Below the pieces are notes generated by a model. The model was not told the DNA's origin, did no database searches, and saw only the letters and a program-made list of their open reading frames with translations. From Elusimicrobiota bacterium (lineage in GTDB: Bacteria > Elusimicrobiota > Elusimicrobia > Elusimicrobiales > Elusimicrobiaceae), in the NCBI GenBank assembly GCA_023398295.1, contig JAEWSL010000010.1, positions 2,268-66,267 on the forward strand: 64,000 bases of DNA, read 5' to 3'. Shown in pieces: positions 2,323-57,980 of the stretch. A program made the translations under genes and the position numbers. Each line of letters begins with the position of its first letter. The stretch's first letter is position 1.

Positions 2323-2796
2323 TCAAAAAGTATATACAGTATACTGAGCGCTAGAAGAAGAAGGCGTTTCTTTACCCGTCATGGCTTTGCAAAGCTTTAT
2401 GGCTCTGTTGTTTGAAGTACTCGCGTAGCATGATTTTCCTTTCCAACTATTACCAAAAAAGTATATAGTGTTGGCAAGCCCGCCGGTGTTTAATATACAT
2501 CCGCCGCTATTACCACCGGCATTAAAATAACAGTTTCCCCAATTATAAGAAACCGTACTAGAGCCTAAAGTGGCATTGCCGAAATCTATGTCAAGAAGAG
2601 CAGGGTCCGAAGTAAAAGCCGAAGCCGTAAGATAATATCGCTGTTCAGCCAAAGCTATGCTGTTGGTCAAATCCATTATTGAGGAAAACTTTGCCTTATC
2701 TCTTGCAAGCTGATATTGCGGCAGGGCAATAGCGGCAAGTATGCCGATGATTAAGACGACAATTAGCAATTCAATTAAAGTAAACCCCTTTTTCAT
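2323..2796 (-). CDS. prepilin-type N-terminal cleavage/methylation domain protein (type IV pilin / pseudopilin-like)
   Basis: N-terminus MKKGFTLIELLIVVLIIGILAAIALPQY is the canonical class III signal peptide (G/F cleavage site, E+5) plus the hydrophobic alpha-1 helix. The C-terminal part is variable and Gly/Ser/Asn-rich. Confidence 0.85.
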   Translation of the reverse strand: MKKGFTLIELLIVVLIIGILAAIALPQYQLARDKAKFSSIMDLTNSIALAEQRYYLTASAFTSDPALLDIDFGNATLGSSTVSYNWGNCYFNAGGNSGGCILNTGGLANTIYFFGNSWKGKSCYASTSNNRAIKLCKAMTGKETPSSSSAQYTVYTF

Positions 2797-2865
2797 AAAA
2801 AATCCCCTGATACTGATATAGTTAGAGTTTATTAAAATTTTACCTGACGCGCAAGATTAACAACT

Positions 2866-3082
2866 ATTATAGTGTTAAGAGCATATATCTCGGGCGCACA
2901 ATTTTCCAATTTTTTTGGCTGTGCGCTTGGGCGCACTCTTGGCAAATGGGCTAATTTACGCAAATGCCAAGCTTCGCTTTCTTTTGGCTCGCGTGCCAAC
3001 TGCATGCCAAACGCAAAGTTGCCAAAAATTGGGAAATTGTGCGCCTGAAATAAGCTTCTGTTACCAGCAAATCGCCGTTGTC
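2866..3082. mobile_element. MITE-like nested inverted-repeat element, short copy A
   Basis: Left end TATAGTGTTAAGAGCATATATCTCGGGCGCACAATTTTCC and right end GGGAAATTGTGCGCCTGAAATAAGC...CAAATCGCCGTT are inverted and match the ends of the copies at 4626, 33789 and 57980. Contains the GTGCGC-TTGG-GCGCAC palindrome module. No credible ORF. Confidence 0.55.
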
Positions 3083-4610: not shown

Positions 4611-4625
4611 CGTAAAATATCTTTT

Positions 4626-5024
4626 TTGTGATTAACGGTATATATCTCAGGCGCACAATTCCATTTGAGCAAATTCGCGCTGCGCGACGCAGGAGCGAGG
4701 CCGTCCGTATTAGAGCGCACGCCGTTGATATAGCCGTCCGTGGAACGCTCGTTTGTATTACCTGAGCGGTTTTTCAAGTTTAAGGCAAATTTGTTTTGCG
4801 CGACGCAGGAGCGCGTGCCGTCCGTCAAATGCCCGTGCGTAATACCTTGTGTGATTTTTTGATTTTGGAGATATTTTTGATTTTTTTGCTGACGACGCGT
4901 AGGAAGAAGAACGGGAGCGTAGCGACTCTCGCTACGCTAGGAGGCAAAAAATCAAAAATAGCCCAAAAGCAGAAAATTGTACACCTGACATCGGCCAAAT
5001 ACACCACATTGCCGTTTATCGTAG
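4626..5024. mobile_element. MITE-like nested inverted-repeat element, copy B
   Basis: Ends GTGATTAACGGTATATATCTCAGGCGCACAATTCC and GAAAATTGTACACCTGACATCGGCCAAATACACCACATTGCCGTT are inverted. Internal modules are shared with copies C and D. Lies between the convergent genes gdhA and tdk. Confidence 0.55.
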
Positions 5025-33788: not shown

Positions 33789-34347
33789 CAACGTCATATG
33801 GTGTTAACGGCAGATATATCAGGCGCACAATTTCCCCTTCTTTTGGTTGTGCGCTTGGGCGCACGCTCAACAAATTAGCTATTGTCCGCAAACTACAAGC
33901 TTCACTTCTTAGGTTTAACAGCAGGAACTACAACGGAATAATTGAAGATTGCTTCAGAGCGCTCCTCACGATACAACCGTTCGTCACCTCGCGCAATGAC
34001 GACCTTAATTGATAAGGGCAATAATGCGCGGCGAAGACGCGCATGCCGTTCGTTAAACGCTTATTTGTAATACCTTGTGTGATTTTTTGATTTTGGATGT
34101 ATTTTTGATTTTTACGGAGCGCAGCGTACCAACGAAGAAGGGAGCAAAGCGACAACTCGGTACCAGAGAGCGTAGAGCACTAATCTTGCGTCCGCGCTGC
34201 CAAAGAACTTTTTAGTAAATTCTTTTTATTTTTTTTGTACGGGGATAGTAAGAGCTATCCTCTAGAAAAAATCAAAAATAGCCCAAAAGCAGGAAATTGT
34301 TCACCTGATATATCTGCCCCTAACACCAAATCGCCGTTAGCCGTTGG
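33789..34347. mobile_element. MITE-like nested inverted-repeat element, full-length copy C
   Basis: AACGTCATATGGTGTTAACGGCAGATATATCAGGCGCACAATTTCC at the left is inverted at the right as GGAAATTGTTCACCTGATATATCTGCCCCTAACACCAAATCGCCGTT. An inner inverted pair (GTATTTTTGATTTTT / AAAAAATCAAAAATAGC) is present. Modules are shared with copies A, B and D. Lies between the convergent genes ogt and the Pmp-like gene. Confidence 0.6.
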
Positions 34348-57437: not shown

Positions 57438-57460
57438 GCGCGCCAACGGCGCGTTCTTTT
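57438..57460 (+). terminator. possible rho-independent terminator of alaS
   Basis: CGCGCC-aac-GGCGCG is a 6-bp GC stem followed by TTCTTTT, 4 nt after the alaS stop. The T-tract runs into repeat copy D. Confidence 0.4.
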
Positions 57461-57980
57461 GGTTGTGCGCTCAGGCGCACCCTGGGCAAATAAGCTAATT
57501 TACGCAACGTCCAAACTTCGTTTTCCCAGTTAAAAGACAAAAACTACAACGGAATAGTGGAAGATTGCTTCCGAGTGTCGGCAATTTGGGAGGACATTGT
57601 CCTTCCAAATTGCCGACCTCGCGCAAAGACGGCACTAATTAACAACGGCAAAGCGCGCTGTCCGTACGTGTTAGTGCGCACGCAGTTGACTTGGCCGTTC
57701 GTTAAACGCTCATTTGTGCCAAGATGTCGCGATTTTTCAAGTTTGAGGCAAATTTGCGTTTGACCTGAAGGCCGCGTGGATACTTGAAGCTTGTTTGTTC
57801 CTCTGCCACGCGGACTGGTCCCGCCGCGTTTTAACTCTTCTGTTTAATTGTAAATGCGAAGCTTGGCATTTGCCTTGCTTAGCTTATTTGTTGAACGTGC
57901 GCCCAAGCGCACAGCCAAAAGAATGAAAAATTGTGCGCACGATACTATCTGCCTCTTACACCATATGCCGTTAGTCGTTG
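57454..57980. mobile_element. MITE-like nested inverted-repeat element, copy D (left outer end missing)
   Basis: The right end AAAAATTGTGCGCACGATACTATCTGCCTCTTACACCATATGCCGTTAG matches the other copies. The left outer terminal repeat is absent. Arms at 57456-57520 and 57857-57920 are inverted copies of the GTGCGC..GCGCAC / GCTAATTTACGCAA module. Confidence 0.55.

Follow-up and report, generated by a model that had tools for sequence, protein, structure and literature searches.

Mosaic, hairpin-forming intergenic repeats of an Elusimicrobiaceae genome: resident loci remodelled in place, probably after an ancient spread as mobile DNA

Four intergenic stretches within a 64,000-nucleotide segment of a draft Elusimicrobiota genome (family Elusimicrobiaceae; contig JAEWSL010000010.1, positions 2,268 to 66,267; hereafter the window) share sequence that no gene explains, which raises the question of what kind of element they are. 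With the limits first given to them, they are designated A (2866-3082), B (4626-5024), C (33789-34347), and D (57454-57980). A sequence-only reading had offered two explanations: miniature inverted-repeat transposable elements (MITEs) nested in one another, or a family of structured RNA genes. Comparison with the rest of the genome and with related genomes indicates that the four stretches are loci of a lineage-wide, mosaic, hairpin-forming intergenic repeat family, which probably spread at first as mobile DNA and is now reshuffled in place. The family is apparently undescribed; it is of the kind represented by repetitive extragenic palindromic (REP) sequences, bacterial interspersed mosaic elements (BIMEs), neisserial intergenic mosaic elements (NIMEs), and MITEs, and it gives no sign of recent movement. 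A search of one literature library found no description of such repeats in Elusimicrobia.

The window is contig C37 of a draft metagenome-assembled genome (MAG), G000, of 1.36 Mb in 72 contigs, with a G+C content of 46% and a completeness of 93.6%; genes were called in it by a crude open reading frame (ORF) rule made for this analysis. The four copies gave 421 BLAST matches in this genome, far above chance, and the starts and ends of the alignments piled up at the same positions in the coverage and breakpoint profile, which marks the module boundaries as real. In profile searches of G000 (nhmmer for T), an end module of ~48 nt (T) was found 53 times and a GC-hairpin module (P) 64 times; K numbered 43 copies, X 24, W 13, and a core resembling the palindromic element E1 described below 19. 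The K, X, core, and W families were collected from hand-chosen seeds. The T consensus is (T)AACGGCG-ATTTGGTGTTAACGGCAGATATGTCAGGCGCACAATTTTC. The modules group into 57 loci covering 17.2 kb, with a median array length of 287 bp, and the high genome-wide load predicted from four copies in the window was thereby borne out. They occupy 41 of the 165 gaps of at least 200 bp, with no bias seen among divergent, convergent, and tandem gaps. Although 90% of the genome is coding, 97.4% of module bases fall outside ORFs. A module may stand alone or form an inverted pair, many different orders are seen, and orientation in tandem gaps is mixed. The unit of the family is the module (T, P, K, X, W, or the E1-like palindrome), not a transposon running from T to T. 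Translations of the repeat loci match each other in several frames with no single consistent ORF, in agreement with the earlier remark that no ORF is conserved between the copies; a conserved small ORF was accordingly rejected, the sole true protein cluster being one of pilin N-termini. Contig C57 (150 kb, the longest, outside the window) holds zero module loci, against about 6 expected from the genome-wide density; its G+C content is 44.4% compared with 45.8% for the genome, and the contig may represent a region poor in repeats or reflect a binning problem.

The full T/P family was borne by only two genomes, G000 and the draft MAG of a sister species, G021, and gene identity between them is about 90.5% at the DNA level. 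Of the roughly 1.3 Mb of G021, 863 kb (66%) was compared in both directions. All seven sites spanned on both flanks were occupied in both species, with different module content in all seven, and no empty site was found among them in G021. Sites A, C, and D are occupied in G021 too, though its contigs end inside those elements, and for about 20 more G000 loci the counterpart is the end of a G021 contig, in most cases one that ends in modules; some of these mappings may be spurious because of pilin-gene similarity. No presence/absence polymorphism was thus seen between the two species; the difference lies in the module content.

Between the two species, we observed exchange of hairpins as well as loss, duplication, and replacement of modules. 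At its right end, site D keeps P and T in G021, with the P hairpin reading GTGCGC..GCGCAC in G000 and GCACGC..GCGTGC in G021, equally well paired, and the left end has a T in G021 that is missing in G000, where a boundary hairpin stands instead. Site C in G021 shows the same T directly after ogt, and site A the same T and P beside the pilin gene. At locus C46, T and the far flank are common to both species, while the interiors differ, one reading Zc-K and the other P-X-P-P; locus C61 is 148 bp longer in G000 (P plus T) than in G021 (solo T), the junction lying at a common TGTGCGC motif. Raised divergence of the genes flanking the loci was not seen between G000 and G021: non-pilin genes beside loci had a median identity of 91.0% versus 90.5% for other genes (p 0.46). 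Since the sites are occupied in both species, and content varies while position does not, the loci are older than the species split; what has happened since then is change of content in place, not new insertion. The closest match to a GdhA query in a metagenome contig collection was 67%, with no close strain in that collection. At the position of copy B (downstream of tdk), genome G004 carries a mosaic of its own, with repeats such as AAGGACGAGATTCCCGACAAAGACACTCGGGAATGACGAA (twice), beside a pilin-type gene; the same position is free of repeats in G001, G012, and G002, whose neighbour genes differ.

Both the GC hairpins of P and the E1 palindromes keep their pairing through changes on both sides of the stem. 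A perfect stem of at least 6 bp was present in 74% of 58 P copies versus 1.8% of shuffles. The P stems, all of G/C type, measure 6-7 bp with loops of 3-4 nt and come in at least four variants (GTGCGC/GCGCAC, GCGCGCC/GGCGCGC, GCGTGC/GCACGC, and GCACGC/GCGTGC); their flanks in the 64 P copies are TTTTGG(C/T)T and CCTTGG or CATATG. E1 is a ~180-nt element that stands alone in other species of the genus, dozens of copies being present in 14 of them, and because copies B and C contain an inner palindrome related to it, the nesting or joining of modules is real. An E1 query gave 17 matches in G000 and 3 in G021, and 12 other species each yielded at least 11-29 scored matches. The E1-bearing species form mostly one subclade, with rnpB at least 90% identical, and every record matched by a pattern from the E1-related element was a rumen or gut Elusimicrobiaceae MAG.

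When 59 E1 copies were aligned, one long hairpin was obtained, with 92.1% of cells paired and 13 pairs changed on both sides. The two-sided changes numbered 115 cells, compared with 43.5 +/- 7.2 in shuffles (0/500 as high), and partner-slid controls were far lower. Outside one fixed G.T pair, there were 59 G.T and 67 A.C cells, with neither strand favoured; this lack of a G.U-over-A.C strand bias points to a DNA-level palindrome rather than a one-strand RNA. What is constrained is thus either the palindrome as DNA or both of its transcripts equally. In the tRNA-rnpB spacer, compared in G015, G022, G045, G012, G003, and G002, a full E1 is present in three species and none in G003 and G002. The G022 spacer holds an E1 remnant without the hairpin, with a left extension from another copy, in a species whose rnpB is 99% identical to that of a full-E1 species; palindrome deletion therefore does happen.

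The loci are strongly linked to pilin-type genes, recognised by the N-methyl N-terminal motif. Such genes flank a repeat locus in 14 of 22 cases (odds ratio 22, p 6e-11 against all genes; odds ratio 10, p 1.6e-5 when only genes beside gaps of 200 bp or more are counted). Upstream positions of the repeats account for 14 cases and downstream positions for 4. P is found mostly 63-126 nt before the pilin start codon, just beyond the conserved promoter region and largely in one orientation; many pilin genes have a conserved upstream block, TAAAATTTTNATAAACTCTAACTATAT...AGGGGA...ATG. Within the window, the example is the pilin-type gene at 2323-2796 (-), which adjoins copy A. The repeat mosaic of G004 likewise lies upstream of its pilin-type gene, in a reading of that one locus.

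The layout of the four copies is given in Table 1. The modules quoted in the sequence-only reading are present in A, B, and D as it described them. Its terminal inverted repeats of copy C are found as outer arms of 40 nt that are 88% complementary (33796-33835 / 34292-34331), and its inner inverted pair is exact over 14 nt in C (34100-34113 / 34267-34280), with a related palindromic unit in B. The gaps had been given as one divergent, two convergent, and one tandem, and the flanking genes agree: a pilin-type gene (-) and gdhA (+) for A, gdhA (+) and tdk (-) for B, ogt (+) and a Pmp-repeat autotransporter gene (-) for C, and alaS (+) and tRNA-Tyr (+) for D. Folded as single-stranded DNA, A, C, and D have z-scores of -5.5 to -6.9 versus shuffles.

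Table 1. Modules and hairpins of the four repeat copies in the window (positions are those of the window).
Copy	Feature	Position	Strand	Basis or remark
A	Left T	2858..2907	+	nhmmer T family and sequence reading
A	P; hairpin GTGCGC-TTGG-GCGCAC at 2921-2936	2908..2985	+	P family
A	Degenerate hairpin between P and right T	2986-3030		
A	Right T, inverted	3031..3079	-	T family; whole-copy fold z -5.5
B	Left T, degenerate	4623..4663	+	Weak T match, 24.7 bits
B	GC-hairpin and K-type modules (GCCGTCCGT...AACGCTCGTTTGT...TTTTTCAAGTTTAAGGCAAATTTG)	4664..4843	.	K family, coverage profile
B	Inner E1-related palindromic unit: T-rich arm, 10-bp central hairpin 4916-4938, A-rich arm	4844..4972	.	
B	Right T, GTGTAC variant	4973..5019	-	
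C	Left T	33789..33836	+	
C	P; hairpin 33849-33864	33837..33925	+	
C	X (CTACAACGGAATAATTGAAGATTGCTTC...), GC hairpin 34025-34043, K-type CCGTTCGTTAAACGCTTATTTGT	33926..34068	+	X and K families, breakpoints
C	Inner E1-like unit: arms 34075-34113 / 34261-34291, core 34114-34168	34069..34291	.	
C	Nearly copy-specific insert within the E1-like unit	34169-34260		Repeat coverage falls to 1-2 over 34170-34259
C	Right T, GTGAAC variant	34292..34337	-	
D	Left boundary hairpin GCGCGCC-AAC-GGCGCG, then TTCTTTT	57438..57454	+	Terminator-like for alaS
D	P; hairpin 57465-57480	57455..57535	+	
D	Interior: X 57540-57576, 18-bp-stem hairpin 57577-57617, K 57690-57757, W 57760-57828	57540..57828	+	
D	Inverted P; hairpin 57897-57912	57830..57925	-	
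D	Right T	57926..57975	-	

Two further observations concern sequence in copy D and elsewhere in the genome. The inverted P of copy D contains TGGCAT-TTGCC-TTGCT at 57864-57879 (+), ~200 nt upstream of tRNA-Tyr, with the -24/-12 spacing of a sigma-54 site. A sigma-54 promoter in the inverted P (TGGCAT-N5-TTGCT) was rejected, the pattern being seen by eye in only ~8-10 of the 64 P copies and in 1 of 22 pilin upstream regions, and the site in copy D is probably a coincidence. Outside the window, C35:26489-27736 and C39:2126-3547 hold a separate tandem or dispersed repeat family, unrelated to the T/P modules, whose translations repeat strings like ...IHKWIYSYD... in several frames.

Under the reading that we favour, the family would originally have spread as small non-autonomous mobile DNA, helped by an enzyme that is now lost or unassembled, and would persist today as resident DNA. 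Its copies would diversify by exchanging sequence through ectopic recombination or gene conversion, in part at common palindromes of the GTGCGC/GCGCAC type, and palindromes may also be removed by slippage deletion. Part of the copy number may stem from duplication along with pilin-gene loci, and the position just upstream of pilin promoters may affect pilin expression or exchange. Several points weigh against this account. The original mode of spread is inferred, not demonstrated, and recombination at the GC palindromes is inferred from one junction (C61 / G021 C10) together with cassette-like swaps. The G021 contigs break at repeats and only seven sites were spanned, so that empty sites could be under-sampled; in a 93.6% complete MAG of 72 contigs, an autonomous element with T ends may be merely unassembled. 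The pilin link is in part a matter of segmental duplication, the C39, C48, and C72 loci being 78-82% identical over 360-550 bp.

The nearest rival holds that the copies are classical MITEs descended from a DDE-type transposon with terminal inverted repeats of ~48 bp (T), whose autonomous copy has been lost or is missing from the bin; internal deletion, decay, and nested insertion would then account for all the diversity. We consider this rather unlikely, though with a real chance of being correct. It would suit the T ends, which mostly face unique DNA and bound the repeat loci and are often preceded by TA or TAAC, as well as the 12 inverted T pairs, spaced 86-572 bp apart, and the E1-like unit inside the T-bounded copies B and C. 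The T ends of one element are, however, no closer to each other than random pairs (identity 0.62 versus 0.65, permutation p 0.87), about half of the T copies are solo T without a partner, and elements ending in P also occur. Because of this within-element identity and of the solo T ends, the idea that a T pair forms the two ends of one transposable unit is unsupported. Target-site duplications were sought as direct repeats of 2-9 bp at 13 offsets in the 12 T-bounded elements, with none found at any of them, and none above expectation was found at 60 copies of E1. Full-length copies in G000 are at most 86% alike and show no size class of the sort typical for a MITE burst. Simple decay, moreover, leaves unexplained the swaps of perfectly paired hairpins at orthologous sites, and the sister species offers no empty site. 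Of the proposal of nested MITEs, what stands is that the family is abundant, modular, and non-coding and that nesting or joining is real; target-site duplications and empty sites did not come to light.

The enzyme that classical MITEs call for was likewise not found. An autonomous element with the same ends had been envisaged, and the draft G000 yielded no T pair enclosing a gene or a transposase and no repeated segment longer than 1.2 kb. Genes of the Y1_Tnp, DDE_Tnp_1, rve, DDE_3, TnpB, and IS110 families were absent from the draft MAGs G000, G021, G012, and G048, the latter two nearly complete; the absence of a transposase noted in the window thus extends genome-wide for these six families, and DDE, IS110, and TnpB partners were rejected. 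The only recombinases found in G000 were two tyrosine recombinases, XerC/D-like in size. G000 and G021 are draft MAGs, and such bins are often without insertion sequences, which limits every transposase negative. Searches for Y1 (PF01797) came up empty in G000, in G021, and in 9 of the 11 other E1-bearing species covered, and IS200-like Y1 genes or fragments, which occur in 12 of 34 species of the genus and not in G000, have no sequence in common with the repeats; mobilisation of the IS200 type or by a REP-associated tyrosine transposase (RAYT), as in the hairpin-forming REP pairs called REPINs, was rejected on these grounds. G020 and G017 hold short C-terminal Y1 fragments, one of those in G020 lying ~100 bp from a copy of the 25-mer AAAAATCAAAAATAGCCCAAAAGC.

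That the repeats are structured RNAs, whether small RNA genes or cis-acting stabilisers, attenuators, or terminators with hairpins selected at the RNA level, we regard as very unlikely. The strong predicted folds and the compensatory changes in P hairpins and E1 would be expected of such RNAs, and in tandem gaps the modules lie antisense to the flanking genes more often than sense (P 23 versus 10, K 12 versus 3); the left hairpin of copy D with its T-run resembles an alaS terminator. Against this, a search of Rfam 15 matched only tRNA-Tyr in the window and gave nothing credible at E values up to 5 for copy C or the E1 loci, neither E1 strand has an excess of G.U over A.C, both orientations occur in all gap types with no preference among them, and the order of the modules varies too much for one RNA gene. 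Promoter- and terminator-like sites are not in excess in the copies, the own terminator of gdhA lies outside copy B, and the T-run of P precedes the hairpin, the wrong order for an intrinsic terminator; a terminator or promoter role was therefore rejected.

Arrays of recombination or protein-binding sites, with T or the GC palindromes used by a host recombinase (the XerC/D-like pair being the candidate) or nucleoid protein and serving exchange or control of the adjacent pilin and surface-protein genes, are a quite improbable explanation. It draws on the strong pilin link, mostly on the upstream side, on the Pmp-repeat autotransporter gene adjoining copy C, on module content that differs between species at fixed sites, and on the C61 deletion junction at the common TGTGCGC motif. 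T also has the GTGCGC-N14-GTTAA spacing of the Escherichia coli dif site, yet it matches the best dif-like candidate of the genome at 3/11 and 7/11 positions in the two arms, and T as a dif-like Xer site was rejected for this poor match. That candidate, ACTTGTGATAATTTTTATTATGTTAACT, came from a fuzzy consensus search for XerC/D sites and lies outside the window, on the minus strand of contig C39 near 34619. Stems of the palindromes differ in sequence but remain paired, which is ill-suited to sequence-specific binding, and the flanking genes are not more diverged, as the identities given above show. No phage, plasmid, or viral contig carries the repeat sequences (T and E1 were checked against phage and viral contigs), and an origin from phages, plasmids, or viruses was rejected for want of similarity. 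A related conjecture, to which we give a low probability, is that the repeats, rather than being inert relics, may be the substrate of a transposase-independent recombination in which short GC palindromes or T ends act as crossovers, shuffling intergenic modules and neighbouring pilin cassettes; the enzyme could be the XerC/D-like pair or an unrecognised one. If true, Elusimicrobia would possess an equivalent of what NIMEs have been proposed to do around pilS and pilE in Neisseria, with the selected hairpins as recombination signals.

Among known systems, the closest in behaviour are the neisserial NIMEs (PMC1797815), followed by REP/BIME sequences and REPINs (PMC3733652, PMC3116915); the family is not a member of any of them by sequence, tags, or RAYT. 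In NIMEs, dRS3 inverted repeats, ATTCCC-N8-GGGAAT, flank RS elements, and the pilS loci of Neisseria sit within NIME arrays, for which a role in the exchange or control of such genes was proposed (PMC1797815). Like them, the loci described here are intergenic, non-coding mosaics of many short repeat families punctuated by short palindromes, their syntenic arrays vary in content between relatives (here at 7/7 spanned loci), they have no known dedicated transposase, and they adjoin pilin or surface-protein genes. There is, however, no sequence relation: the palindromes here are GC stems rather than ATTCCC-N8-GGGAAT, a ~48-nt T bounds the loci, the arrays are short, the flanking genes are not more diverged, and no phage using the repeats was found. 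In the REP superfamilies, which belong to the REP/BIME repeats of enterobacteria and pseudomonads, a stem of 6-13 bp bears an unpaired GTAG or CGTC motif at one of its ends; stems of the CGTC type start with AT pairs and finish in a CCA tail (PMC3733652). The present repeats share with REP/BIME sequences the joining of short extragenic palindromes with other motifs, the alternative complementary stems, the high copy number, and the intergenic site; they differ in having no GTAG/CGTC tag or AT-first stem beside the P hairpins, no RAYT, and longer and more varied modules. Identity with tagged REPs was rejected, the tags being absent beside the 64 P copies and the GTAG...CTAC in the central hairpin of copy B lying in the paired part. 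REPINs rely on a RAYT gene that is present in one copy, with REPs on either side (PMC3116915, PMC3337134). E1 and the inner unit of B and C resemble them as long imperfect palindromes whose arms change in step and which are vertically inherited in one clade and long-lived, but there is no Y1 transposase in G000, G021, or most E1-rich genomes.

More distant parallels are found among other palindromic and modular repeats. ERIC/IRU and Correia (CREE) elements are MITE-like imperfect palindromes of 100-160 bp; Correia elements duplicate TA, have uniform ends of 26 to 51 bp, and often lie upstream of genes. The present family is like them in size, palindromic shape, intergenic site, internal insertion and deletion variants, and the lack of a known transposase. 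It departs from them in three respects: target-site duplications were looked for without success, each end is a module in its own right, and the interior varies as a mosaic. The BOX elements of pneumococci are built of the modules boxA, boxB(n), and boxC in a fixed A-B-C order. They too are modular non-coding repeats with a variable number of modules and stable predicted folds, whereas the modules of the present family come in widely varying order and orientation.

Repeats are normally purged from small genomes densely packed with genes (1.1-1.7 Mb, about 90% coding). In the present case, modules are found in about one in four of the larger intergenic gaps, relatives have dozens of copies of the covarying E1 palindrome, and no transposase is recognisable. 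In practical terms, the family breaks the assemblies of rumen and gut Elusimicrobiaceae MAGs and mimics ORFs and elements bounded by terminal inverted repeats in annotation. The family is also a manageable system for asking how palindromic repeats endure and undergo remodelling at fixed sites, and its strong link to the upstream side of pilin-type genes gives a concrete starting point for work on how pilins are regulated or varied in an uncultured lineage.

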